Positions 6,674 to 35,925 of a DNA stretch of 64,000 bases are shown here, one piece after another. The position numbers and the translations under genes were made by a program. Origin of the DNA: a virus; the IMG/VR virus record IMGVR_UViG_3300027659_000010; one strand, given 5' to 3'. The notes below the pieces were generated by a model, which saw only the letters and a program-made list of their open reading frames with translations, was not told where the DNA came from and searched no databases. Position 1 is the stretch's first letter, and each line of letters opens with the position of its first letter.

Positions 6674-7108
6674 CTACTTCACATCAACAATGTCAATGAC
6701 CTTGGGTTTAGCTGATTCTGGAATGTCTCTGATCAACTTCACAGTCAGCATGCCATTCTTGGTTTCCGCACCCACAACTTCAATGTGTTCGGCCAAAGGA
6801 AATTCTTTGATAAAATCACGAGTTGCAAGGCTGCGATGCAGATACTGCTCTGCCGCATAATCTGTGGTCTGGCTTTCACCCTTGACGATCAGCACATTGT
6901 TTTCAACAGTCACTGAGATCTCGGTCTTATCGAAACCAGTCACTGCCAATTGAATGGCGTATTCGTTTTCGTCTAGTTTAATGATGTTGTGTGGCGGATA
7001 GTTGTTTGATACACTGTTGGCAAATCTGCGTTCCATTTGATCAAACATGGTATCAAATCCCACAAGTGCTCTGCTTAGAGCGTCTATTCTAGCTAATTGA
7101 TTGTTCAT
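6674..7108 (-). CDS. Small heat shock protein (Hsp20/IbpA)
   Basis: NYPPHNIIK, LAVTGF, YLHRSLATRDF, NGML; start set at MNNQL after AGGAGA. Confidence 0.92.
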   Translation of the reverse strand: MNNQLARIDALSRALVGFDTMFDQMERRFANSVSNNYPPHNIIKLDENEYAIQLAVTGFDKTEISVTVENNVLIVKGESQTTDYAAEQYLHRSLATRDFIKEFPLAEHIEVVGAETKNGMLTVKLIRDIPESAKPKVIDIVDVK

Positions 7109-7164
7109 AATAGTCTCCTTATAAAGTAAGAACAATTAGAGGCCTCGAAAGTACCCCTATATGA

Positions 7165-9069
7165 TTAGTCTGCTTTCTTCTCTGTGAAGGTAGCATCAAC
7201 TACATCATCTTGGCCAGGCATCGATCCTGCATCAGCTTGTGCTTGTGCTTGATCTTTGGCCTGCCTTTTTTCCAGCAATGTTTTCATTGCAGGGAAAACT
7301 TTGTTGAGTGCTTCGGTGATTTTTTCTTTGTCATCACCTTTGACTGCTTCTTCTACTTCTTTGATCACAGTTTCAAGTTCTGTAATTTCCGCATCAGTGA
7401 GGTCACTGCGGAATTCTTCGAGATCTTTTTTCACTTCATGGATCTGTGCTTCTGCAGAATTTTTCACATCGATCAATTCACGAGCTTTCTTGTCTGCTTC
7501 AGCATTGAGTTCTGCATCTTTGATCATGGCCTGTATTTCTGCATCGCTGAGCCCACTGTTGGATTTGATAGTGATTTTATTTTCTTTGCCTGTGCTTTTG
7601 TCTTTGGCAGAGATATGCATGATACCATTAGCATCAATATCAAATGTGACTTCGATCTGGGGCTGGCCTCTGCGAGCAGGTGCGATACCTTCTAGATTAA
7701 ATTCACCTAGCAATTTGTTATGCTGCACCAGTTCACGCTCACCTTGGAACACCTTGATGGTCACTGCAGGTTGATTGTCGTCTGCTGTGGAGAATGTCTG
7801 TTGTCCTTTGGTAGGGATAGTGGTGTTTTTCTGTATGATTTTCGTCATCACACCGCCCAGTGTTTCAATACCAAGGCTCAACGGAGTCACGTCCAATAAC
7901 AATACATCTTTACGATCACCACCCAACACTGCACCCTGTATGGCAGCACCTACAGCCACTGCTTCGTCTGGGTTCACATCTCTGCGAGGTGCTTTACCAA
8001 ACAGTGCTTCCACAGCTTCTTGCACCTTAGGCATACGTGTCATTCCACCCACTAGGATAACTTCATCTATGTCAGCAGCAGTGACCCCTGCATCTTTCAT
8101 AGCAGTCTTGCAGGGTTCTATAGAGCGTGTTATCAATTCAGCAACCAAACTTTCTAGTTTGCTGCGAGTGATCTTGATGTTCATGTGACGTGGACCGCTG
8201 GCATCTGCAGTGATATAAGGCAGATTCACATCAGTCTGTGCAGAACTTGAAAGTTCAATCTTGGCTTTTTCTGCTGATTCTTTAAGTCTCTGTAACGCCA
8301 ACATATCTTTAGTCAGATCCACACCCTGATCTTTCTTGAACTCTTCTACCAAATAGTCCATGATGCGTTGATCAAAGTCTTCACCGCCTAAGAATGTATC
8401 TCCATTGGTACTCAATACTTCAATCTGCTTTTCTCCGTCAACGTTAGCAATTTCGATTATAGACACATCAAAGGTACCACCACCTAGATCGTAGACAGCA
8501 ATTTTTCTGTCTGCCTTGTCCTGTTTGTCTACACCATAGCTCAGTGCAGCCGCGGTAGGTTCGTTGATAATACGTAGAACTTCTAGCCCAGCGATCTTGC
8601 CAGCATCCTTGGTAGCTTGTCTTTGGCTGTCATTGAAATAGGCCGGTACAGTGATCACTGCCTGCGTGACTGTGGTTCCAAGATAATCTTCTGCGGTCTT
8701 TTTCATTTTACGCAGAACTTCTGCGGAAATCTGTGGGGGTGCTAGTTCTTTGCCTGCGGCTCGTACCCATGCATCACCATTACTGGCTTCCATGATTTCA
8801 TATGGCATCAAGTCAAGATCTTTTTGTATGGCCTGTTCTTTGAACTTGCGACCAATCAATCTCTTGCTGGCGTAGATTGTGTTTTTTGGATTAGTTACTG
8901 CCTGACGCTTGGCTGATGCACCGACTAACACTTCGTCGTTGGCATATGCCACGATACTAGGTGTAGTTCTAGCACCTTCGTTGTTTTCAATAACTTTGGG
9001 AATTCCGTTCTCGATAACAGCCACGCATGAGTTGGTGGTGCCGAGGTCAATACCGATGATCTTAGACAT
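7165..9069 (-). CDS. dnaK: Chaperone DnaK (Hsp70)
   Basis: [22 protein letters not shown], full-length 634 aa. Confidence 0.98.
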
Positions 9070-15063: not shown

Positions 15064-15897
15064 TTAAAGACCCATTTCTTTTCGAATTTTTGTTGCCGAA
15101 ATATCAGTGATTGACAAATCAAATGTTTCTTGTTCGATTTTATAACCAACATCACGACCATAAGTGATATTGACGATATTAGGAACAACCTGTATTTCAT
15201 ATTGTCCTTGATAAATGGGGTCTAGATCTCTTTTTATGTATTGCATTACCTGATCCAGAGCAAAAGGATTAGTGCCTTGCCAGCCCTGGCAATCACGTAT
15301 TTGTATAACAACTTGTCCTGTTTTCGCTATAGCACGTTCAAACAGCGCCCGATGGCCTGCATGCCAAGGTTGCCATCTACCTAGCATTTGAACAGTTTCT
15401 TGCCGCCAATTAAACACAGGTCTTCGACGATTTTCTAAAATATGTTCGCCTACAAACTCTGCCCACTTCTCACTATTTTGTTCTGTAATGCGGAAGTCAT
15501 AAACTTCGGGTGGCACAAACATTTTATTTGTGTCTTCAAAACGCCCTTTATCTATAGTATCCATCCAAATAGTCCAATCCGCTTTGTAGTTGTTTCGCAT
15601 TTCTACCAATGGGGCCACGAAATCCACAATACAATAATCAGTATCGGCTTTGTCTGCCAAATCTCTCATGCGTTGGCTTTGTCTAATCCGGCCATCTAAA
15701 CTGAAGTCCCAGTCATTGAACTGTCTGCGAACTTCATCAGCATTTAGCCATCTCACTGTAACCATCGAGTCATTTAAGGGGCGTAATGAATTTTCATTTA
15801 TAGGTTTAAAATTATTTTCTAAATATTTTTTTAGTTGCTTGGCAAGATATGTTTTCCCTGAACCAGGTAATCCCATTATCAAAATTCTTTTAGTCAT
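15064..15897 (-). CDS. Adenylylsulfate-kinase-like domain fused to HxGH nucleotidyltransferase domain
   Basis: P-loop GLPGSGKT, NADEVR, DFVAP; C-terminal GRWQPWHAGH...ISATKIR. Confidence 0.8.
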   Translation of the reverse strand: MTKRILIMGLPGSGKTYLAKQLKKYLENNFKPINENSLRPLNDSMVTVRWLNADEVRRQFNDWDFSLDGRIRQSQRMRDLADKADTDYCIVDFVAPLVEMRNNYKADWTIWMDTIDKGRFEDTNKMFVPPEVYDFRITEQNSEKWAEFVGEHILENRRRPVFNWRQETVQMLGRWQPWHAGHRALFERAIAKTGQVVIQIRDCQGWQGTNPFALDQVMQYIKRDLDPIYQGQYEIQVVPNIVNITYGRDVGYKIEQETFDLSITDISATKIRKEMGL

Positions 15898-16553: not shown

Positions 16554-16578
16554 AAAAAGCGGCTTATCGCCGCTTTTT
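16554..16578. terminator. Intrinsic terminator downstream of pqqA
   Basis: AAAAAGCGGC-TTATC-GCCGCTTTTT. Confidence 0.8.
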
Positions 16579-16591
16579 CAATGTTACAAAA

Positions 16592-16663
16592 TTATCTATT
16601 CATAACATACATAGTGATTTCAAAACCAAAACGCATGTCAGTTGCTGTTGGTGTGGTCCACAT
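16592..16663 (-). CDS. pqqA: PQQ precursor peptide PqqA (23 aa)
   Basis: Not in ORF track. MWTTPTATDMRFGFEITMYVMNR with W-x-x-P and GFE-x-x-x-Y; SD AAGGAGG; own terminator. Confidence 0.92.
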   Translation of the reverse strand: MWTTPTATDMRFGFEITMYVMNR

Positions 16664-16787
16664 AATATCCTCCTTTGTTGATAAATTACATACTGTATTG
16701 TGCTAGTATGTATCACTATTATATGACAGATTCGCCACAGAACACATAGTTAATATCATTAAATAACCGTAGCAAATATCATTATGG

Positions 16788-17201
16788 TCATTTGGTTTTC
16801 TCAGCCAACTCTCGATATCCGCGACCTGTGGGATGTATGCCGTCGGCGCTCATGTGTGCTTTTGGTCTTGACAAAATCGTATCACCGTATTCTTTGGCCA
16901 ACATAACTATAGCATCATGTACCAGAGGTTTTCTATCACGACCAGGATCGATCCAAAATACCCTATCAGCGGCAATATTTTTACGCATGTTCTGCAATTC
17001 CCAAATACTTCTCACACCAGCATGATCATTAGCACCTAGGCTGATAATCACGGTCTTGGCAGGACTCTTGCTGACTTTGGCAAGATAATCTCTGTTCCAC
17101 TGCTGAGAGTTCCAACCTCCTCGGGCATAGCTCACACACTCAGGCCTTGCCTGTGCTGTTCCAACTGCGATGCTGTCTCCAATAATCAAGCACTCTAGCA
17201 T
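16788..17201 (-). CDS. SGNH/GDSL hydrolase-like protein
   Basis: GDSIA, SLGAND, DGIHP. Confidence 0.8.
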   Translation of the reverse strand: MLECLIIGDSIAVGTAQARPECVSYARGGWNSQQWNRDYLAKVSKSPAKTVIISLGANDHAGVRSIWELQNMRKNIAADRVFWIDPGRDRKPLVHDAIVMLAKEYGDTILSRPKAHMSADGIHPTGRGYRELAEKTK

Positions 17202-17204
17202 AGG

Positions 17205-17642
17205 TTATTGATTGGCTTTATGTGCCTGCAGGGCTTTGGTGAAACGGTTAGCATGACTGCGTTCTGCTTTGGCCAAGGTCTCAAACCAATCAGCGATTTC
17301 GTCCAGTCCTTCATCACGAGCAGTTTTAGCCATACCTGGGTACATGTCTGTGTATTCGTGTGTTTCACCATGTATAGCTGATTCTAGTGCTTCTGCTGTG
17401 GTTTTGGCTGCCATGCCTGTGGCAGGATCTCCCGAACCACCATCGATCAGGTATTCCATATGACCATGTGCATGGCCTGTTTCACCTTCGGCTGTGCTAC
17501 GGAACAGTGCAGAGATATCGTTGTCTCCGGCCACATCAGCCATGTTTGCGAAATATAGATATCGGCGATTGGCCTGTGACTCGCCCGCGAAAGCTGCTTT
17601 TAGATTTTCTTCGGTACGTGTACCTTTTACAGTTTGTGACAT
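17205..17642 (-). CDS. Rubrerythrin (short, di-iron)
   Basis: [41 protein letters not shown]. Confidence 0.92.
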
Positions 17643-17761
17643 AGGGTCTCCTTGTTTGTCAATGTATGTGTATATTATATATCCTATTGAAATAGGCAAT
17701 CAATAGTTTTTTTGTGAATATTTTTTTATGAAGCTAATAGATTTTTTCAATATCAAAAAAG

Positions 17762-17800: not shown

Positions 17801-18358
17801 TTAGAACTTGAAACCAACGCTGATATTAGTAGCATTGTAATCGCTGTCACCACGAACACTGTCGTAGCCTAGGCCAACGAAATAATTCTTACTTAGAGCG
17901 TGCTCTGCACTCAGGCGATATGTGCGTGTGGTGTCAGCATTGACGCTGTCCATTGCTGCACGATAACGGTAACCTGCTTTAACTGAAAGCGATGGAGTTA
18001 CAGCATACTTGATGCCTGGCTCTACACTGTAGTAGCTGTAGTTAGTTGCAGTCTTGAACTTCTCACCAACACCTGCACGACCGTACACGCTGAGACCAGT
18101 TGCACCGACTGGCTGTGTAGCTGTTAGACCGGCTTCTAAACGTGTGTCGCTGAGATTGTTACTGTTGTCAGTCTTTTGACGCAAGCTGAAATCAGCTTTG
18201 AACATTTGGTTAATGTCTGTGCCCATGGTAACTTTAGTTGCGCGAGCATCTGCGGTACTATCTACCCCATCACGGCTGCTATACTCAACAGCACCAAACC
18301 CGCCAGCAAAGGCAGTACTTGCGGCGCTCAAAGCGGCCACTACGATAAACTTCTTCAT
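17801..18358 (-). CDS. Outer-membrane beta-barrel protein
   Basis: Signal peptide, alternating beta strands, terminal Phe (VGFKF). Confidence 0.8.
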   Translation of the reverse strand: MKKFIVVAALSAASTAFAGGFGAVEYSSRDGVDSTADARATKVTMGTDINQMFKADFSLRQKTDNSNNLSDTRLEAGLTATQPVGATGLSVYGRAGVGEKFKTATNYSYYSVEPGIKYAVTPSLSVKAGYRYRAAMDSVNADTTRTYRLSAEHALSKNYFVGLGYDSVRGDSDYNATNISVGFKF

Positions 18359-18401: not shown

Positions 18402-18431
18402 AGTATATAGTATTTCTGCTATGCATGTCAA
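18402..18431 (-). promoter_or_regulatory. Sigma70-type promoter of OMP gene
   Basis: TTGACA-18nt-TATACT. Confidence 0.55.
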
Positions 18432-18432
18432 G

Positions 18433-18459
18433 AAAAAGCGGCTACGAATAGCCGCTTTT
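18433..18459 (-). terminator. Terminator of tmRNA gene
   Basis: AAAAGCGGCTA-CGAA-TAGCCGCTTTT. Confidence 0.8.
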
Positions 18460-18810
18460 GGTGGTTTAGGTTACAAGGTATGTCCTACCCCGGACCGCTG
18501 TTTTTTAGGCAGCTAGGGCAAATCTGCTTTCATTAGCAGCACCGCGAACGGTGTTACCAGTGAAGCTCATTGCACTGAAGTCAAATGTATCTGCGTTTGC
18601 ATTTACGTTTATTTGCTTGATTAACGGTCATCGCCTACCGTGTTGCCGTCTCTATTATCTCACCCTGTCGAAACCATGGCTCGCCCAACTAAGCACACTC
18701 GGCACTAAAGCCTTGCTACCAGAATACTCGGTTCGGAGTATGCTTAGGTGGACGAGGCGGGAGTCGAACCCGCGTCCAGAATGCCTTCACTTTGAAGGGA
18801 TTACAACAAT
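18460..18810 (-). ncRNA. ssrA: Circularly permuted (two-piece) tmRNA
   Basis: T-arm/acceptor 3' part (GCGGGTTCGACTCCCGCCTCGTCCACC, to 18747) precedes the 5' part (GGGCGAG...TTCGAC, from 18686). G3.U wobble in acceptor stem. Tag frame 18600-18505 ends FALAA*. Outer ends approximate. Confidence 0.88.
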
Positions 18811-18813
18811 TCC

Positions 18814-18882
18814 TTACATGAAAACTTCAATCAATACAAATACAACAATAAGAATTGCTACAATGAATTGATAGGCTTTCAT
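18814..18882 (-). CDS. 22-aa hydrophobic single-TM peptide
   Basis: MKAYQFIVAILIVVFVLIEVFM*; fills the gap between csp and ssrA; not in ORF track. Confidence 0.45.
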   Translation of the reverse strand: MKAYQFIVAILIVVFVLIEVFM

Positions 18883-18884
18883 AT

Positions 18885-19088
18885 TTATGCAGGCTGAATG
18901 TTGCTGGCCTGCTGTCCTTTCTGACCCTGAGTTACTTCAAACCTTACACTCTGTCCTTCTTGTAGGCTCTTGAAGCCACTCGAATTAATCTGTGAAAAGT
19001 GAGCAAATAAGTCTGCGCCACCATCGTCCGGCGTAATAAAGCCAAAACCTTTGGCGTCGTTAAACCATTTTACTTTTCCTGTTACCAT
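18885..19088 (-). CDS. cspA: Cold-shock protein
   Basis: [21 protein letters not shown]. Confidence 0.95.
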
Positions 19089-19131: not shown

Positions 19132-19542
19132 TTATTTAATCCAACCTATGCGTTTTCCCGCAGCTATTCGCCGATCATATTCCTCGACCGAGCTAGGGAA
19201 TCTCCAGGCCCAAACTGCCACGCACAACATAAACAGTGCTGTATATATTATACCACGAACAGGTATCGCAGTCAACCACATGATCGCCAAACTGGTTGAC
19301 ATCATGAACAGCATAAAGTATTTCATTTTCTGAGGGAACACACGCCTAGTATTCCAATTATGTAGGAACGGTCCAAACAACCGGTGATTGTAGATCCAAC
19401 GATGCATGCGCTCTGAACCTTTACTAAAACAATAGGCAGCAAACACCACAAATATACTGTATGGGATGCCCGGAGTGATAACTCCTATATAGGCCATGCC
19501 AAGACTTAGAAAACCCAATGTGTTCCAAAATAATTTTTTCAT
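19132..19542 (-). CDS. YbaN/DUF454 inner membrane protein
   Basis: GVITPGIP...[24 protein letters not shown]. Confidence 0.85.
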
Positions 19543-22294: not shown

Positions 22295-23806
22295 TTACAT
22301 ATTCAACTTACTACGTTTGTAATTCTCAATCATTTCGTAATTAAGATTGAGCTTTGGCGAACCTTTTTTGTAGTCGTAAGATAATAGCTCACGTATTGAC
22401 TTATCAGGAGCCGTGTAAAAAAACTTTTGAATAGGATACCTAATATCGTTTTGAGGAAATTTATAATACATCAATTCTACCCATTCTGCCATTCTTCCCC
22501 AATTTGTGTGTTTGTTTTTCCATATTACATTATCCGGGCGGAATCCAGTTATGTGATTATAATTGTCATACACTTCAAGACTTTTTAGATACTCTTTTTG
22601 CTCTTCTTGAGTAGCAGGTTCATAACCGTATTTGGCATAGTCCATGGTCATCTTTGAATTTTGGTTTAAATGGTCAAAGGCATTTTTCTTTGGGATATCA
22701 AGTACATTTGCTACCACATTCTCTCCCTGCCAATTGTCAAGACACCATTGAAAATTAGCTTCTACATCTGCCTCGGTATCATGAGGAAGCCCTGCAATCA
22801 AAGTGATTGTGGCTCTGTATAACCCATCATTTTGTTTGTGAAAATAATTTTTTGCATCTATCAACCCTTGTTGTAATATTTCCGGATTCATTCCTTTACC
22901 AATGACCTTTCCCGATTCGTGGTTAAAAGTTTCAATGCCGTACAGATGAGAGACAACCTGCATTCTTATCAGTTCATCCCATTCCTTTTGACCACGTTTT
23001 ACTAACAGGTCAGGACGAATAAACGCCCAGAAAAAAGGTTGGAAGTCCAGCTGTTGTACAACGTCAGCAAATTTTGTAATTTTTTCAGTGCGGTCGTTGA
23101 ATGTTTCGTCGCTGATCATATATCTGGTGATACCGAATCGATCATAAGCATCTTTGATCTGTCTTTCAAAACTGTCAGTATCTCTAGTCCAATCTCCCTT
23201 GACTCCGATCATTGGATGATTACAGTAGTCGCAGACAAACTTACAACCCCTGCTGAATTCTATTGAAATCCATTCATATGATTGAAGGAAATCTCGATCC
23301 TCATATATAATAACAGGATCTCTCCAAGGAGCAGCATCCCATCCGCCTTGTGCAACTTTTCTACCTTTTACAGTTGTAAACTCTACGGCGTCGCCGGCAT
23401 TAAACAAATACTTTAATAGTTTTATAAAGATTGTTTCTGCGTACCCAGTTATTTGATAGTCAATATGCTTTGTGTTGATTTCTGCAAAAGTTTGAGATCC
23501 GTAGATGATTAGAATATTCGGATAGTTTTCTTTTAGCCAGGCAGCAGTTTGTTCAGCTAACTCAGGCCATTGCAGGAATAACGATCCGAACCCTATGAAC
23601 TTGTAATCACTATCAAGTCTAGTTATCAGTAACTGTTTTATTTCTTCAAACGTCCAGAAACGGAAAAAATCTATTACTTCTACATCCCATCCATGCTTAC
23701 GTATTTCTGTAGCTATTCGATGACCACCACCTGATCTACCTGCCTCATCTTCTCTGGCAATAAGAAATAACAGAGCTTTATACTTACTTTTTTCAATAAT
23801 TTTCAT
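22295..23806 (-). CDS. B12-binding-type radical SAM protein
   Basis: SRGCKFVCDYC, ISDETFN, YGIETF, LIAGLPHD. Confidence 0.85.
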   Translation of the reverse strand: MKIIEKSKYKALLFLIAREDEAGRSGGGHRIATEIRKHGWDVEVIDFFRFWTFEEIKQLLITRLDSDYKFIGFGSLFLQWPELAEQTAAWLKENYPNILIIYGSQTFAEINTKHIDYQITGYAETIFIKLLKYLFNAGDAVEFTTVKGRKVAQGGWDAAPWRDPVIIYEDRDFLQSYEWISIEFSRGCKFVCDYCNHPMIGVKGDWTRDTDSFERQIKDAYDRFGITRYMISDETFNDRTEKITKFADVVQQLDFQPFFWAFIRPDLLVKRGQKEWDELIRMQVVSHLYGIETFNHESGKVIGKGMNPEILQQGLIDAKNYFHKQNDGLYRATITLIAGLPHDTEADVEANFQWCLDNWQGENVVANVLDIPKKNAFDHLNQNSKMTMDYAKYGYEPATQEEQKEYLKSLEVYDNYNHITGFRPDNVIWKNKHTNWGRMAEWVELMYYKFPQNDIRYPIQKFFYTAPDKSIRELLSYDYKKGSPKLNLNYEMIENYKRSKLNM

Positions 23807-23990: not shown

Positions 23991-25091
23991 TTATATAGCC
24001 GGAAGAGCATCATAGTCAAGATTTTCACCCATGACGCCTATCACATAGTTGGTGCTTTCGGTTTCTTGCAGAGCACTCTGTTTCTTCGAAGTGTCCGTGT
24101 GCTTATTGAACCAAGGAATTGGAGTTGATCTCGGAGCAGTGGCCTGATACTTGATACCTATGTCTTTGAGCGCACCTACAGCAGTATAGTCTACGAAATC
24201 TTTGAGTATGGCTGCATTGAGTCCAATCACGGGACCCAGTTTAAACAGATAGTCAGCCCAGGCCTTTTCTTCAGAGATGACATCCAGATACAGCTGATAT
24301 ACTTCTGCTTCACATTCTAGTTTGGCTGCCGCAAATCTCGGATCTTCCTTGACTACCTGATTGATCAACCATGCAGTCCAACCTTTGTGTAGCAGTTCGT
24401 CTTGTAGGATTAGGCTGATAATATTGCCATTGCCAATGAAGATGCGATTCTCTACCATGGCCAATGATGTGGCAAAACTTACCATAAAGCGGAATGCTTC
24501 TAGAGCATATGAAGCATGCAGGGCCATGTATATGGCTCTGACATGATCTTTTTCAGAGATTGCCTCACCTATCTCTTTTCTACAGTTGATTTCATGTAGT
24601 TGATCATAGTATCGACCCACGCTGGCAGCCATGTCTACGATCTCTTTGGTATCGTGGATTGTATTGAACACATCCTTGGGCACGTTGTAGATGTTGCGAA
24701 TGATATGGCTGTATGAACGACTGTGTATGTTGGTTTCAAAGAATGTCCAATTGTAGATCAGTGCTTCCAGTTCTGGTAGGCTGATCACAGGCATAAACAC
24801 CTGGCTGGGAGCTCGGCCTTGCAGACTGTCTAGAGCTGTTTGACGCAGAAGGTTTGAAGTGAATATGTGCTTGACCGCGGCACTGGCATCTTTGAAATCG
24901 TTGGCATCCTTTGTGAGATTGATTTCTTCTGGCACCCAAAAGAATCCTCGAGCTGTTTTTTCGTAGTCAACTATCTTGTTGTATTTGACTTCTTCGAATC
25001 GCTGTATGGTTACCGGACCGGCTGGGTCAAGAAACATCTTACGATTCACATAATCAGTTTTGTTGGTTAGATTGTATTGTCTTTTGCTCAT
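23991..25091 (-). CDS. nrdB: Ribonucleotide reductase class Ia beta subunit
   Basis: FFWVPEEI, QTALDSLQ, ETNIHSRSY (radical Tyr), LEAFRF, DELLH. Confidence 0.95.
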   Translation of the reverse strand: MSKRQYNLTNKTDYVNRKMFLDPAGPVTIQRFEEVKYNKIVDYEKTARGFFWVPEEINLTKDANDFKDASAAVKHIFTSNLLRQTALDSLQGRAPSQVFMPVISLPELEALIYNWTFFETNIHSRSYSHIIRNIYNVPKDVFNTIHDTKEIVDMAASVGRYYDQLHEINCRKEIGEAISEKDHVRAIYMALHASYALEAFRFMVSFATSLAMVENRIFIGNGNIISLILQDELLHKGWTAWLINQVVKEDPRFAAAKLECEAEVYQLYLDVISEEKAWADYLFKLGPVIGLNAAILKDFVDYTAVGALKDIGIKYQATAPRSTPIPWFNKHTDTSKKQSALQETESTNYVIGVMGENLDYDALPAI

Positions 25092-25127
25092 TTGTATTTT
25101 CCTCGTTTGTACGCATCTACTAATATA

Positions 25128-25679
25128 TCACAACAGGTTTCTAGCATTAATAAAATCCCAATTAATAATTTTCCATTGATTTTCTAGATATTTTGATTTG
25201 TCTGATTGATAGTCTAAGGCCCATGCATGTTCCCACCAATCTATCAATACCACTATGTCATTCTTGATCTCATGATTGACAATGGTTTTTATCTTGCCGT
25301 CCTTGGCCAAGTAGGCCCACCCACTGCCTTGTATGCTCATGGCCGTTTTCTCAAACTGTTGCTTGAACTGATCAAAGGTTTTATAGTGTTCTTCAATGAA
25401 ACTCAGTATAGGTCCTGTCGGCGTGTTGTTTCTACCGGGTGCTTGATATTGTTGGAACAGAGTATTGTGCAGGAATGCGCCAGCTTCATTGAACTCAGCA
25501 TCACCTTCATTGCTGTTATAGCGTTTGGCATAGCCCTGTGCCAGTTCGCCGTAGTGATAGTTGATGGTATCTTCGCTGATGCTGGGAGCCAGTTCATCAC
25601 GCTCATAAGGCAATGGCAGTATTTCTAATCGATGCGGCCTACCTTCGTTGAGCACGTTGCGTATGAAACTATAGGGCAT
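25128..25679 (-). CDS. Fe/Mn superoxide dismutase-like protein
   Basis: LPYERDELAP, YHYG, LHN, GSGWAYL, DWWEHA. Confidence 0.85.
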   Translation of the reverse strand: MPYSFIRNVLNEGRPHRLEILPLPYERDELAPSISEDTINYHYGELAQGYAKRYNSNEGDAEFNEAGAFLHNTLFQQYQAPGRNNTPTGPILSFIEEHYKTFDQFKQQFEKTAMSIQGSGWAYLAKDGKIKTIVNHEIKNDIVVLIDWWEHAWALDYQSDKSKYLENQWKIINWDFINARNLL

Positions 25680-25684
25680 CGTGT

Positions 25685-26014
25685 CTATACTCTAAAACTT
25701 TCGCCACACCCACAGCGATCTCGTTCGTTGGGATTGACAAAATCAAATCCTTCGTTGAGTCCTTTCTTGGTCCAATCCATTTCTATACCTTCTAGATAAA
25801 CCAAACTCTTGGGATCTACAAACACATGCACCCCATGACTGACAAAACCAACATCATCTGTGCGAGGACCGTGCGGTGCGTCTACATATTCCAGCACATA
25901 GGCCAAGCCACTACAGCCTGTGGTTTTAACTCCAACACGGATGCCAATCCCTGTGGGTCTTTGAGCCAGTTGTGTTTTAACCTTGTCAGCAGCGGTTTCA
26001 GTAAGAGAGATCAT
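25685..26014 (-). CDS. iscA: Fe-S cluster assembly protein IscA
   Basis: [19 protein letters not shown]. Confidence 0.92.
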
Positions 26015-26384
26015 GTTTCTTTTTATAGTCCTCTACTGCGGCTTTGATAGCATCTTCTGCAAGTATGCTACAATGTATTTTAACCGGTGGTAGGGCAAGT
26101 TCTTCAGCAATTGTGCTATTAGTAATCGTTCGTGCCTGGTCAAGCGTTTTTCCCTTGACCCATTCTGTGACGAGGCTTGAGCTGGCGATTGCTGATCCAC
26201 ACCCGTATGTTTTGAATTTTGCATCTGTAATAATCCCATCTGTTACTTTGATCTGTAGTTTCATTACATCCCCGCAGGCAGGAGCACCCACCATGCCAGT
26301 GCCCACATCTGTATCAGCTTTATCGAAACTACCTACGTTACGTGGGTTTTCATAATGATCAATTACTTTGTCGCTGTATGCCAT
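25998..26384 (-). CDS. iscU: Fe-S scaffold IscU
   Basis: [39 protein letters not shown]. Confidence 0.96.
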
Positions 26385-26393
26385 ATTGTATCC

Positions 26394-26717
26394 TTATACG
26401 CTAAAACTGCTGCCACATCCACAAGTGCTTTGAGCATTGGGATTAGTGATTACAAATTGGCTGCCTGAAATATCCTCTTTATAGTCTATACTAGCACCTT
26501 GTAGATACTGCATGCTCATTGAGTCCACCAATACCTTGAACTTTTCTAATGGTATTTCAAAGTCATCTTCGTTGGTTATTTCGTCGAATGTGAAGCCGTA
26601 GCTGAATCCGCTACAGCCACCTCCCTGCACAAAGGTTCTCAGTGCAAGATTGGGATTGCCTTCTTCTAAAAGCAGATCCAAGATTTTGATCTTGGCTGAT
26701 TCGGTTATGGTCATCAT
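26394..26717 (-). CDS. erpA: A-type Fe-S carrier ErpA
   Basis: [30 protein letters not shown]. Confidence 0.9.
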
Positions 26718-29056
26718 AGTTTGCATGCTTCGCAGTCCTCTTCTTCGATGCTGGTTTCAACCTCACGTTCGTTGTAGAAACCATTGTAATGTACTTCTGG
26801 TGTGGCTTCTGCCACTGCCTTAGAACCTGCTTTGTTGATCAAGCTGTAGTAAAAGGTCTTGAGTCCCCATACATGCGCCTGCATGAGGTTCTTAGCGATC
26901 AGCGTTGTAGGCACCTTGCGGTCTGGAAAGTGTGCAGGATTGTAGAATGTGTTGGTAGATATTGATTGATCAACATACGCAGCTAAAACTGCGGCAGTTT
27001 TAAGATATCCATCACAGTCTCGTTGATCCCACATTAGTTGATACTTATTTTTTAATCTATTGTATTCTGGTACTACCTGAGTCAATGATCCTGCTTTAGA
27101 TTCTTTGGTAGATATCAAGCTCATAGGCATTTCTATCCCATTAGTTGAATTTATAACCACTGAGCTTGACTCTACCGGAGCAATGGCCATCAATGTGGCG
27201 TTTCTCACGCCGTGTAGTTTCATTTCTTGTCTGAGATTCTCCCAGTCAAGTTCTGGAGCAAAGTTGGTGAGGTCGTTAACTCCTTGGGCTCTTCTTTCCC
27301 AGGGGAATTCACCTTTGCCGTATCTGGTTCTGTCTGAATCTTTGCATCTGCCTCTTTCTTTGGCCAGTTCAACGGTGGATTCTGTAAGGTAAAAGGCTTG
27401 ATGCTCCATCCAAACTTTAACTTCTGCCAATGCGTCGTTGTCGCCATATCTGTAGCTCCTTTTTGCATGCCAATAGGCAAGATTAGTGACGCCTATACCC
27501 AGGGGTTGGAGTTCATCATTACTGAGTTTGCTTTGTATACTCAGGAAGTCTTGATAATCCAATATGTTACATAGGCTTCTTTGTAGAATGCGACAGGCTC
27601 TACGCATGTCTTCTGGGTTACGGAACGCACCCCAGTTAATGGATCCCAGTGTGCATAACGCTATGCGTCCCTGCTCGTCGTCAAGTCTTTTAAATGAACG
27701 AGTTGGCAATAAGATCTCACAGCACAGGTTACTTTGATAAATGGTATGATACTCTGGATCAAACGGTCCTTGATTCATAACATTATCAATAAACACCAAA
27801 TAGATGCGACCCGTGTCTGTACGCTCCTTCAAAATGCCAGACTTGAATACTTCTTCAGCTGACATTGTTTTTTTGCGTAGGTCTTTACGCTTTTCATATT
27901 TCAAATACAGTTGTTCAAACAACTCTGTGTTTCTGTAAAATGCTTCATACAAGTCTGGTACTTCGTTGGGATCAAAGAAAGTTATGTTTTCTCGGTTCTT
28001 GAATCGTCTCCAGAAGAAAGCACTAAGCACAACCCCATAATCCATATGACGGACTCGGGTTTCTTCTGTTCCTTGGTTGTTCTTAAGCACAATAAGATCA
28101 TCAAACTGAAGATGCCAAATAGGATAGAATACAGTAGCACTAGCATTACGAATACCTCCTTGACTGCAACTACGAAGATCGCCAAACCATTTCTTTAAGA
28201 ATGGGATCATACCAGTGTGCATGATCTCTCCACCTCTAATGGGACTACCTAATGATCTAAGACGACCGATCTCTAAACCAATGCCGGCACGTTTGCTGGC
28301 ATACTTGGCCATCATCTCACCAGAAGCAAATATGCTATCCAGATCGTCGTCACTGCGGATAAGCACACAACTAGAAAACTGTTTAGTTTGAGTGCCAAGG
28401 CCAGCCAGCACAGGTGTAGCAAGAGTAAATAGGCCATCGCTCGCACAGTTGTAGTACTCTTTGATGTAACGCATACGGGACGATTGAGGTTCTTCCTTAT
28501 GAAAGACCGTAGCGGCCGCGACCATATATCTAACCTGTGGCGTCTCATAGATCTCTTTCGTAGCGCGATTGCGTACAAGATACTTCTCAATAAGTTGTTC
28601 AATGGCTGCATATGAGTACTGTTCATCCTTTTCGTGATCAATGAAATCATTCATGCGATTCCATTCTTCTTCTGAATACCACTCCAAGAGTTCAGCGGTG
28701 TAAAGGCCCACTGAAACATTTTTCTTTATGATGTCATAGAGATGGGGAGGTTCGTATTGGCCATATACATCCTTGCGCAGCATGCTGAGTCTCTGCTTGC
28801 CTGCCACATATTGGTAGTTGACATGTCCTACATCTGGATTATGTTCTATGTCTATGAGATTAACTATAGCTCTAAGAGTGGTACCGTCAATTTCTTCTGT
28901 GGTGATGCCATCATAGAAATGCGGTTGTGCTTTGATTTCTATCATTGATTGACTTACGTCTGCTATGCCTTTACAGACTTTGGCAACCTGCGCCTGCCAT
29001 TTTTCTACTGCTAATGGTTCTTTACTACCGTTTCTTTTAATAACCGTGATGCTCAT
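26714..29056 (-). CDS. nrdA: Ribonucleotide reductase class Ia alpha subunit
   Basis: ATP cone, FSSCV, SNLCCEI, GLKTFYY, C-terminal CEAC. Confidence 0.96.
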
Positions 29057-32669: not shown

Positions 32670-34105
32670 TATCCTGCCAACACTCTTAGTAGGTTGCTGC
32701 TGCGGTCAATGCTTTCACGCTGTTCACGACCTGCATCGCCCATACCGGCTGCTGGTTCTGCGGCAGCAAACTCATCATCACCACCTAGTTCTTCACCACC
32801 TGCATTCATTGCGTCTGGTTCAACCGGTCCCATTTCGTCACTACCAGCCATGTCTGCGCCTGGTTCCATACCCAGCATTTCTGCACCTTGTTCTTCGCCA
32901 GTGAGCATACGCACACCTGTGGCTAGAGTTTCACGTGTGGTCTTGAGATTTTCTAAGGCCTGTTGAATAGCTGGTGCCACTGAACTGATAAATGTCTTGG
33001 CCTGTTCTTGACTCATCTCATCACGGATTGAATCACCTAGTTGCAGCAGTGTGTCGTTTTCCATGCCTGATAGTTCTTCAATCCAACGGCTCACTCTGTC
33101 AACCATGGTCTTTGCTGTAACGATAGCGGAAGCTTGTTGTACTTCGCCTTCTCTTAAATTACTCATACTTTCTCCTTGTGTTCTTTGTATGCTTTCTGTG
33201 GCAGGTGCCCCAGTTACATTTACTTCCCATTTCTTGCCAGTGGACTCGCTCTTTTTAGCCGCCCAGTCCTTGAGTTGGTAATAATGTTTTCTTTCAGCTG
33301 AGTCGTCGGCATACTGGCCGCGACCCTTGAATACTTTCCACTGCTTGCCGTTGATACTAACAGCAAAGTTGTTTGGTGGTTCTGTGTTGCCTTCGTCGTT
33401 TTCTCTTTCTCTGCGGCCCATGCCACTGACACTGCTGTCATAATCTCGTTGGTAGGCATCTCGTCCACCTTCGTTATTAACACTTTCGTAGTCTTCATCG
33501 CTACCAAAGCCAGCTGATGAAAGAGCGTAGGCATCATCAGTTTCGCCACCTTCGTCATCGTCCCCGCCTTGGGCAAGTTCTTGAAACTCTGCCTCTAGAT
33601 CATCCATGTAGTCGTCCATGTTACGGAGTTCGCCACCGTCTTGATCAGAGTATGAACCATATACCTCATCTAATGCACCTTCCACATCACCCTGTCGCAG
33701 CAATGACGCAATACCTTCTATGTCTGGATCTCCGTAGCCGCCAATTTCAAGCATGTCTTCGTCGAACTGTTTCATAATTTTTACGACTTCTTCTTCGATC
33801 GACCCAAACCCCTCTTCAACTTCTGCAGGACCTGCATCTGCTATGAATTCCTCACGTTCTGCGATTTCAGCATTGATAGCATCCAACATCCACTGTGCCT
33901 TAGTCATTGCTTCGTTTTCGATGTTTTCATTGAATCCGCTTTGGCTGCGGGCATCGTGAATCTGTGTACGCAGTTTGTTGCGGGCATCTTCCAGCTTGGG
34001 TAGATCAAAAGATTCAAGATTTAATCTTTGGCCAAAGGTCTTTTCAATGCTTTCATTGATGCGTTCAGCTGATCTATTGAATCTAAAAAGGTCTGTGGTT
34101 TTCAT
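32669..34105 (-). CDS. Acidic protein, candidate prohead core/scaffold
   Basis: Very acidic; many x-x-E/ES motifs; helical C-terminal domain. Confidence 0.5.
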   Translation of the reverse strand: MKTTDLFRFNRSAERINESIEKTFGQRLNLESFDLPKLEDARNKLRTQIHDARSQSGFNENIENEAMTKAQWMLDAINAEIAEREEFIADAGPAEVEEGFGSIEEEVVKIMKQFDEDMLEIGGYGDPDIEGIASLLRQGDVEGALDEVYGSYSDQDGGELRNMDDYMDDLEAEFQELAQGGDDDEGGETDDAYALSSAGFGSDEDYESVNNEGGRDAYQRDYDSSVSGMGRRERENDEGNTEPPNNFAVSINGKQWKVFKGRGQYADDSAERKHYYQLKDWAAKKSESTGKKWEVNVTGAPATESIQRTQGESMSNLREGEVQQASAIVTAKTMVDRVSRWIEELSGMENDTLLQLGDSIRDEMSQEQAKTFISSVAPAIQQALENLKTTRETLATGVRMLTGEEQGAEMLGMEPGADMAGSDEMGPVEPDAMNAGGEELGGDDEFAAAEPAAGMGDAGREQRESIDRSSNLLRVLAG

Positions 34106-34139
34106 AGTTTTAAGGGTCCAGATTTTATAGTGTATTTAT

Positions 34140-34565
34140 TCAGAATTTGGTCAAAGAGTCTGCGAGATTTTTAGCAGCCACGGTGCGATCTCGACTTGCT
34201 GTGTACCGAGCCCACAGTATGTCTGCACGGTCATGATCTCCGGAATCTTTGGCCTTTTGATATTGGCTACGCAGCAGTTGGCTGTCCACAAACCAACGAC
34301 CGTAGTCTTGATCTGCGGCATAGATGCGATCTATAATCAGAGAGCTTTGTCGCAGGCACAAGAGATTGGCCATGCGAATAGCCACTGCATTGAGGTGTAT
34401 TTCTCTGTAGACGATCTCTCCACCACGCAGGAGATTTTTCATATGACCCTGACTCTGTATCAGTATATCACCTACGAGAATGCCTTCCGTGGTTCGAACT
34501 GGTATGGGATTTTGCAGCAGCTCTTTGCGGACTATGTGTTCTAGCCGCTGGCTTATTCTTGTCAT
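34140..34565 (-). CDS. Hypothetical protein
   Basis: ORF with TAAATA upstream. Confidence 0.6.
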   Translation of the reverse strand: MTRISQRLEHIVRKELLQNPIPVRTTEGILVGDILIQSQGHMKNLLRGGEIVYREIHLNAVAIRMANLLCLRQSSLIIDRIYAADQDYGRWFVDSQLLRSQYQKAKDSGDHDRADILWARYTASRDRTVAAKNLADSLTKF

Positions 34566-34602
34566 AAAAGGACCTCTGGTCCTTTATTTAAATGCTGTTA
34601 TT

Positions 34603-34923
34603 TCATGCTCCGAAGAACTTGAGTATGGTCTGTAGATTCAGCTGTCCAGTCCAACCTAGCCCAGCTATAAACGCCATGCCTACCATGCCATACATCATCA
34701 TCTTGTTCTTGCTTTTTTCTAGCTCGTTGAGTTTTTTGCCTAGTTCTGCATGCTGTGTGCAAGAGGCGTCGTACATGTGATTTAATTTCTCAGTGAGTCC
34801 GTCACGAGTTTTATCCAGACAGTCGTGGAGATCTTTGACATCAACTTTTAGTTCATCTAGTTTTTCGTCAAGATTCGCAACCTGCGTTTCTACTATTCCA
34901 ACACGTTCTGCTACCGTAGGCAT
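34603..34923 (-). CDS. Coiled-coil protein with C-terminal TM helix (holin/XhlA-like architecture)
   Basis: Heptads followed by MMMYGMVGMAFIAGLGW; start MPTVAER after GGAGA. Confidence 0.55.
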   Translation of the reverse strand: MPTVAERVGIVETQVANLDEKLDELKVDVKDLHDCLDKTRDGLTEKLNHMYDASCTQHAELGKKLNELEKSKNKMMMYGMVGMAFIAGLGWTGQLNLQTILKFFGA

Positions 34924-35023
34924 TAGGGCCGTCTCCAATGTAATAAGTCAAGTGCTCGCTCCGAGCCATGTGCCTATGATATGATTGAATGCCTAATGGT
35001 TTGCCTTGATAATATATTTATGT

Positions 35024-35419
35024 TCAGGGGCTAATTTTAGTTACCCAAATATTAGTGTTATCACCTCGGCTTCTAAACACAGCAGGGGTTAGTTCCACGG
35101 TGTTATTTAGCTGATCAACTATGGGCACACCATCAAGATCATCAACTAACAGAGCTACAGGATCGCCTTGGGCTAGAAACACGTCTTCACGTTCTGCGTC
35201 GAACTGCCAGATCCAATGTGTGGCCTTGCCTGGTCCTATAGGCAGCCTACCGTCATGCAGTTCAGGGTCTCGGAGCCAAGTGACATTCGAGCGCATGCCG
35301 ATGGCCTGCACGAGACTATTAAAATTAGCCTGTTGTCCTAGTTTGACTCGGTCAGTTTCATCTCGTACTGGATTAGTTCGAGTTATATCGACCACTGTAA
35401 TGATTTGATAGCGTGCCAT
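35024..35419 (-). CDS. Hypothetical protein
   Basis: TVVDITRT...QQANFNSL; TAAATA upstream. Confidence 0.6.
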   Translation of the reverse strand: MARYQIITVVDITRTNPVRDETDRVKLGQQANFNSLVQAIGMRSNVTWLRDPELHDGRLPIGPGKATHWIWQFDAEREDVFLAQGDPVALLVDDLDGVPIVDQLNNTVELTPAVFRSRGDNTNIWVTKISP

Positions 35420-35456
35420 AATATGCTAGTATTTACATTCTAAATCTCCAGCCAAC

Positions 35457-35480
35457 AAAAAAGGACCTTTCGGTCCTTTT
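35457..35480 (-). terminator. Intrinsic terminator
   Basis: AAAAGGACC-TTTC-GGTCCTTTT. Confidence 0.75.
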
Positions 35481-35508
35481 ATGCTTCCCATCCCTGAGAA
35501 TTAACTAA

Positions 35509-35925
35509 TTACAGTGCTGGTGCAAAGTGTGCTTCAACAGATACAGTAAATGTACCTGAACCACCGCCTGTAGCACCTTCTGCTGCTGACTTGATATCAG
35601 CTACTGTAAGGTTACCAGTACCTTGGCAACGTAGGAATACTGTTGCTGTTGTACCGCTAACAAAAGCTGCACCTGCTGCTGTTCCAACTGCTGCTACTGT
35701 GAAAGCAGAATCACCTGTACCAGCAGAACCTTGACTTCTTGTGATTTCGCTGATAGCTGCACTTAATTCTGCATCGTTAATTGTACTGTCTGATGCAATT
35801 TTAACAATCAGCTCACGTCCAGCATCGGACTGGCTGATTCTGTGTTTATATGCGTTTGCACCAAATGTTGCTACTGTTGCACCTGCGTTGTCGACTGTTT
35901 CTACTCTACTTAATACGTCTGCCAT
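35509..35925 (-). CDS. Probable abundant small structural protein
   Basis: Ala/Thr/Gly-rich; own TAAATA, strong SD and terminator. Confidence 0.5.
   Translation of the reverse strand: MADVLSRVETVDNAGATVATFGANAYKHRISQSDAGRELIVKIASDSTINDAELSAAISEITRSQGSAGTGDSAFTVAAVGTAAGAAFVSGTTATVFLRCQGTGNLTVADIKSAAEGATGGGSGTFTVSVEAHFAPAL

Follow-up and report, generated by a model that had tools for sequence, protein, structure and literature searches.

The locus described here raises the question of why a phage would encode PqqA, the peptide precursor of PQQ, and none of the enzymes that convert it. PQQ is made when the Glu and Tyr of PqqA's E-x3-Y motif are cross-linked and excised, and one peptide is spent per PQQ. 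We analyzed a 64-kb stretch of viral DNA (IMG/VR record IMGVR_UViG_3300027659_000010), hereafter the window. Our reading, to which we assign a probability of roughly 0.8, is that it holds a self-contained functional pqqA cassette, consisting of a Shine–Dalgarno (SD) sequence, an ORF and a terminator, that belongs to a large phage of a Methylophilaceae-like host and feeds host PQQ synthesis.

The window is phage DNA. Almost all of its ORFs share one strand; large ORFs at 46–64 kb encode tail fibres, the ribonucleotide reductase (RNR) genes nrdA and nrdB lie at 24–29 kb, and a CsgG curli pore gene lies at 2–4 kb. The tail-fibre, RNR and curli-pore genes flank pqqA on both sides and on the same strand, placing it within the viral genome rather than in a host flank. 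The GC content is approximately 42%. Further genes encode a bilin reductase, DnaK, Hsp20, IscU/IscA, superoxide dismutase, rubrerythrin and CspA, and pqqA is embedded in a series of such host-like genes (Table 1). At least 10 IMG/VR loci likewise have a homologue of this Hsp20 gene in the vicinity of pqqA. Downstream of pqqA, a fusion of a kinase and an NMN-adenylyltransferase-like domain may represent a second cofactor-related auxiliary gene, and homologues of it occur near pqqA in two other viral loci (L048 and L117). The tmRNA of the window has a long predicted tag with the C-terminal end ANESRFALAA.

The ORF reported in the preliminary description was recovered as an exact 23-residue translation, MWTTPTATDMRFGFEITMYVMNR, and its claimed Glu/Tyr pair was present, E15-x3-Y19, within FEITMY and in the same register as in PqqA of Acinetobacter and Methylophilaceae. 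PqqE is established to cross-link this Glu/Tyr pair (Barr et al. 2016, as cited in PMC7678222). The TIGR02107 profile (PqqA equivalog), which had been proposed as a check, scored 37.7 bits against a curated cut-off of 20 and covered model positions 1–21 of 21, while PF08042 scored 38.7 bits against a cut-off of 21.1 over positions 1–19 of 19. A short stand-alone pqqA with translation signals is expected to span ~20–40 codons, and the window gene has 23. This length lies under gene-caller cut-offs, which is the one point in favor of a chance ORF or a non-coding element that merely resembles PqqA. However, both profile matches were full-length with E-values of ~1e-9, a degenerate PqqA pattern matched once in the window against 0.00 matches expected from 100 shuffles, and the viral copies described below are intact and conserved codon by codon. 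Chance resemblance is effectively refuted by these results, with a probability that is practically negligible, and the window ORF is a bona fide, intact PqqA gene.

Table 1. Features of the window around pqqA and elsewhere, and pqqA positions in phage record loci.
Feature	Position	Strand	Details
pqqA CDS	16592..16663	-	23 codons + TAA; cross-link residues Glu15, Tyr19
Shine–Dalgarno AAGGAGG	16669..16675	-	5-nt spacer to ATG
Intrinsic terminator hairpin, then T run	16554..16578	-	11-bp stem, -18.4 kcal/mol, 13 nt past stop
Predicted 8-bp hairpin in pqqA 5' leader, between TATAAT and SD	16688..16714	-	Fold of upstream 75 nt, -13.4 kcal/mol overall
TATAAT hexamer, possible -10 box	16718..16723	-	Sequence match; significance doubtful, not above chance
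277-aa fusion, P-loop kinase + NMN-adenylyltransferase-like domain	15064-15897	-	Two genes downstream of pqqA
GDSL hydrolase	16788-17201	-	
Rubrerythrin	17205-17699	-	
Outer-membrane beta-barrel	17801-18358	-	
Circularly permuted two-piece tmRNA, betaproteobacterial type	18414-18859	-	RF01850 138.8 bits (gathering score 84), RF04321 134.5 bits
CspA-type cold-shock protein	18885-19088	-	
DUF454 membrane protein	19132-19542	-	
Hsp20	6674-7135	-	
DnaK/Hsp70, full-length	7165-9069	-	852 bits
IscA-like, IscU, IscA-like, Fe/Mn superoxide dismutase between nrdA and nrdB	23991-29056	-	
Radical SAM gene, B12-binding class	22295-23806		Just downstream of the 23991-29056 cluster
Phage pqqA, L001	4001-4066		
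Phage pqqA, L002-L005	2001-2069		
Phage pqqA, L006	621-689		

Around the gene, the SD sequence AAGGAGG and a terminator belonging to pqqA itself, both claimed from the start, were confirmed, the latter as a perfect hairpin of the AAAAAGCGGCG-ATAAG-CGCCGCTTTTT type. Given that the hairpin is symmetric, it could act in both directions. A generic terminator scan missed it because the flanking A/T runs pair and thereby consume the T tail. The upstream TATAAT that had been offered as a promoter element is indeed there, but promoter function found no support: neither a usable -35 box nor a TG extension accompanies the hexamer, and neither of two promoter scans called it. An own promoter for the window pqqA is thus unproven, and the transcript may arise by read-through from the GDSL-hydrolase gene that lies upstream. 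At the same place as the leader hairpin of the window, pqqA of the LD28 phage P19250A has a similar inverted repeat.

The viral-database search suggested in the preliminary description placed this gene in a much larger set: of 50,697 phage records, 10 that are genuinely phage carry it, as do at least 120 IMG/VR contigs. In tblastn searches of the phage records, the window peptide had only 12 matches. Ten were genuine phages, namely nine cultured Methylophilales/Methylophilaceae phages (LD28 phage P19250A and the OM43 phages Venkman, MEP301, MEP401, MEP402 and four Melnitz) and one uncultured podovirus. The other two, labelled 'Acinetobacter phage MD-2021a', were rejected as phage, as they are bacterial chromosome with fur, ppk and a full pqqABCDE operon; one such locus (L007, CAKLQF020000010.1 102210-114275) also contains entB. 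Before MEP401/402, the OM43 phage isolates were solely Venkman, MEP301 and Melnitz (PMC10580990); because these and MEP401/402 are the isolates in that paper, every cultured OM43 phage named there has pqqA, and with the LD28 phage P19250A this extends to all cultured Methylophilales phages that the 2023 literature names. All isolate copies had an SD sequence and most had a downstream hairpin. None of the GenBank records for the cultured Methylophilales phages found calls pqqA correctly: it is unannotated in those of P19250A, Venkman, MEP301 and MEP401/402, and a 'hypothetical protein' is called over it on the wrong strand in Melnitz (locus tag _151), as also in the podovirus MW202481. Neither the Melnitz paper nor the MEP401/402 paper mentions pqqA.

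Scanning IMG/VR with the degenerate pattern W-x2-P-x5-R-h-G-h-E-[VI]-T-h-Y yielded at least 120 contigs with pqqA. All listed matches were intact ORFs of 23–25 codons, with an ATG 1–3 codons ahead of the Trp and a stop 4–6 codons past the Tyr, and ATG, SD and stop were all outside the search pattern. Across the listed matches, the isolates and the window, an SD-like motif was present in 124 of 126 viral copies, 5–8 nt upstream in 119 of them. Terminator-like hairpins within 90 nt downstream were found for 55/125 viral copies, versus 7/123 upstream controls and 5/625 shuffles. Sigma-70-like promoters upstream of viral pqqA were not enriched (21/123 versus 148/1230 shuffles). In six of ten randomly chosen listed contigs, the longest ORF encoded a portal, a terminase (twice), a major head, a lysin/structural or a primase-helicase protein.

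The genomic backgrounds of these copies were many, and the listed contigs had few genes in common with the window. Nearest to it, among the matches listed, was a 148-kb contig in which a rubrerythrin gene with 87.6% identity adjoins pqqA. A second contig (G308) had only the rubrerythrin gene beside pqqA in common with the window, and at the ends of a 356-kb contig (G306) nothing but pqqA was common, with a structural protein 36–38% identical. These two contigs were rejected as stand-ins for the rest of the phage genome, the relationship being too distant. One locus (L106) encodes a peptide identical to that of the window, although 7 of 66 nucleotides differ, all silent in effect. Variation across the pqqA set was concentrated at third codon positions, and the pN/pS of the set was 0.23, a value biased by the search pattern, in which several codons are fixed, and hence circular in part.

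These patterns bear on the possibility that pqqA is a passenger, that is, a host cassette caught by illegitimate recombination without benefit to the phage, or the remnant of an attachment site in a host pqqA. Host pqqA genes are small, dispersed and self-contained, so that they would be easily captured, and the window copy lacks an evident promoter. However, the viral copies, at least 120 in number, are all intact with start, SD and stop, and silent substitutions preserve the peptide, whereas conservation at an attachment site would act on nucleotides and not on codons. Additionally, at least five lineages of lytic phages, unrelated to one another, have pqqA, in differing genomic contexts. 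Given that the copies are complete and their differences silent, we rejected the passenger, attachment-site and gene-fragment readings, and consider capture without benefit unlikely.

The PqqA enzymes did not accompany the peptide. As initially claimed, pqqB-E are absent from the window: when authentic PqqB–E sequences from the mislabelled Acinetobacter locus were used as tblastn queries, the best E-value in the 64 kb was 0.34. The same queries recovered pqqB-E in none of 120 listed viral loci versus 39 of 120 bacterial loci, which served as positive control. PqqC and PqqE above cut-off were likewise absent from two pqqA-bearing viral contigs of 356 kb (CheckV 96% complete) and 66 kb (100% complete), and PqqC/PqqE queries against the 50,697 phage records recovered only the two mislabelled Acinetobacter records. 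In all complete or near-complete pqqA-bearing phage genomes that were searched, pqqA was a stand-alone gene. The lack of linkage between pqqA and pqqBCDE in the window is not diagnostic for this clade, as the host copies in Ca. Methylopumilus are also unlinked.

The only radical SAM gene of the window was considered as a PqqE candidate and rejected, given that it belongs to the B12-binding class and falls far below every curated cut-off, including that of PqqE. Its presence could still suggest that the phage modifies the peptide with its own radical SAM enzymes into a product other than PQQ. The enzyme, however, also scores far below the cut-offs of the RiPP families, and tblastn found no PqqD-like partner in the window. 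Moreover, phages of 35–44 kb carry the same peptide, and no genuine phage record contains a PqqE-like radical SAM enzyme. Since small phages without such an enzyme in their records carry pqqA, chemistry of the phage's own is extremely unlikely, and processing by host enzymes is the reading that we retain.

For the host side, we scanned 185,579 species-representative genomes for peptides of the MRFGFE[VI]TMY type and found at least 120 loci. Most of the listed bacterial loci belonged to Methylophilaceae (Methylotenera, Methylophilus, Methylobacillus, Methylovorus and Ca. Methylopumilus), and the remainder included some Methylophaga, Burkholderiaceae, Limnobacter, Rhodoferax and methanotrophs. 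Among the listed matches, the two commonest viral peptides were identical to PqqA of Methylotenera, Methylophilus and Ca. Methylopumilus, and the bacterial peptide closest to that of the window came from a Methylotenera MAG (L209; 20 of 23 residues identical). In blastn searches of the window tmRNA against 300 host-class genomes, matches were confined to the conserved T-arm region of ~30 nt and were uninformative for host assignment. From its peptide and tmRNA types, the window phage is predicted to infect a Methylophilaceae-like betaproteobacterial methylotroph. Approximately 16% of the listed IMG/VR matches had another peptide type, [IVL]R[LF]GFE[VI]T[ML]Y, most ending in MYFK (loci with this type include L011, L019, L021, L027, L034, L038, L045, L053 and L062), and the phages carrying it probably infect other PQQ users, perhaps gammaproteobacterial ones.

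The candidate hosts possess the pathway that the phage lacks. All five Methylophilaceae-type genomes inspected (1.1–2.0 Mb) encoded PqqC and PqqE over curated cut-offs, part of the host check proposed at the outset, and had 3–4 pqqA copies each. Together with the betaproteobacterial type of the tmRNA and the Methylophilaceae peptide type, this agrees with the PQQ-using betaproteobacterial host group named in the preliminary description. The predicted hosts accordingly hold both a homologue of the phage gene and the remaining pathway, as an auxiliary metabolic gene (AMG) calls for. In the streamlined 1.27-Mb genome of Ca. Methylopumilus universalis (G001, NZ_CP040953), three pqqA genes at 416138, 457444 and 1186267 are all unlinked to pqqC/pqqE at 577431-579528. 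Methylophilaceae genomes have been described with 3–12 pqqA copies and a single pqqBCDEFG (PMC4109929), which argues that these hosts scale up peptide supply. Given that the host copies are dispersed, a stand-alone cassette is the normal host arrangement, and only pqqA is amplified by the hosts.

The same peptide comparison allowed us to weigh whether the phage product could act as a decoy or regulator that binds PqqD/PqqE unproductively or serves as a signal, throttling or re-timing PQQ synthesis. Inhibition by small substrate-mimicking peptides is possible, and 4 of the 23 residues in the window variant are not those of the commonest host peptide. Against this, most listed viral peptides are identical to host PqqA, so that they equal the host substrate, and all of them, including that of the window, retain the cross-link residues and the leader motif W-x2-P...R-x-G. 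Furthermore, a PQQ-dependent dehydrogenase is encoded on one of the viral contigs, and such an enzyme would call for more PQQ rather than less. That 72-kb contig (G309, IMGVR_UViG_3300025120_009955) encodes a XoxF/MxaF-type PQQ alcohol dehydrogenase at 34049-35731, ~6 kb from pqqA (locus L060), with a TIGR03075 score of 608 bits versus a cut-off of 480. We therefore regard a decoy as very unlikely and a role as substrate as the favored one. The contig is also a second case of pqqA paired with a dehydrogenase, after that from Lake Baikal.

Comparative evidence thus supports the reading of phage pqqA as an AMG. In the mechanism that we propose, the phage-made peptide would enter the host pathway of PqqD/PqqE, peptidase, PqqB and PqqC during infection, where cross-linking and excision of Glu15 and Tyr19 would yield one PQQ from each peptide. 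The enzymes turn over, and PqqA is the sole component consumed stoichiometrically; additional peptide would thus maintain or increase the supply of PQQ for periplasmic XoxF/MxaF-type methanol dehydrogenases. Sustained methanol dehydrogenase activity could in turn support phage replication through energy and C1 flux. From sequence comparison we infer that the phage gene is expressed during infection, that its product is processed to PQQ and that the phage benefits, with compensation for host shut-off as a possible rationale. Since PQQ bound in existing holo-enzymes is stable, the need for fresh PQQ within a lytic cycle is an assumption of this mechanism. An OM43 transcriptome paper contained nothing on pqqA expression.

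Beyond the window, we lean towards the view that pqqA is a hallmark AMG across unrelated phages of PQQ-dependent methylotrophs, always found without pqqB-E and overlooked through its size of 23 codons. This view draws on the presence of pqqA in each of the five Methylophilales phage lineages in culture and in 120 or more uncultured contigs. Methylophilaceae, including OM43, LD28 and Methylotenera, are major methanol oxidizers of the sea and of lakes, and the sharing of one gene by their unrelated phages suggests that PQQ supply becomes a bottleneck during infection. If the hallmark view is correct, the supply of a sacrificial peptide rather than an enzyme would limit the energy metabolism of infected cells, and the hosts of uncultured viral contigs could be predicted simply from the PqqA peptide type. 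PqqA would rank among the smallest AMGs known, and its logic is distinct in that the phage brings the consumable substrate of a cofactor pathway while the host keeps the enzymes. Cultured phage–host pairs exist, among them Melnitz and Venkman with Methylophilales H5P1, MEP301 with HTCC2181 and P19250A with IMCC19250, allowing a direct test of this idea.

Viral PqqA is already known as an AMG of Methylophilaceae phages, and the window gene is not the first of its kind. In Lake Baikal, the viral population VP_266 encodes a PqqA gene that was read as an AMG boosting methanol oxidation (Coutinho et al. 2020, Microbiome, PMC7678222), and a 2026 survey includes pqqA among its listed viral genes (PMC13188868). 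We found no report in the searchable literature of an unannotated pqqA across every cultured Methylophilales phage lineage and at least 120 viral contigs, nor one that viral pqqA always comes without pqqB-E. Like the window, VP_266 encodes the PqqA precursor, on a large, T4-like contig with a predicted Methylophilaceae host (PMC7678222). However, that contig encodes a methanol dehydrogenase, none of which was seen in the window, and the pqqA neighborhood of the window, with rubrerythrin, GDSL hydrolase and tmRNA, differs from that of VP_266. Additionally, VP_266 is a single contig of ~35% GC, compared with ~42% in the window, and the spread of the gene was unreported (PMC7678222).

The cultured Methylophilales phages resemble the window in their stand-alone pqqA of 23–24 codons with an SD sequence, with peptide identities of 68–83%, but they represent other lineages (35–44-kb phages and a 141-kb myophage) with marine or LD28 hosts. 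In Melnitz, a tRNA-Leu lies directly downstream of pqqA in place of a window-like terminator, and its tmRNA was reported as the alphaproteobacterial type, in contrast to the betaproteobacterial type of the window. The orphan pqqA genes of Methylophilaceae resemble the window gene in peptide family and in forming single-gene cassettes without linkage to pqqBCDE, but are chromosomal and under host regulation. The canonical pqqABCDE(F) operon of Acinetobacter (L007) and Klebsiella has a precursor of the same kind, length and Glu/Tyr register, and co-transcribes it with the processing enzymes, which the window and every examined phage lack. A further parallel is the cyanophage AMG psbA, with which the phage re-supplies the fastest-depleted component of the host's energy-generating system. 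Phage pqqA would be alike in re-supplying such a component; while psbA encodes a turnover-prone protein subunit, pqqA encodes the sacrificial substrate of a cofactor and is far smaller, so small that gene callers miss it.
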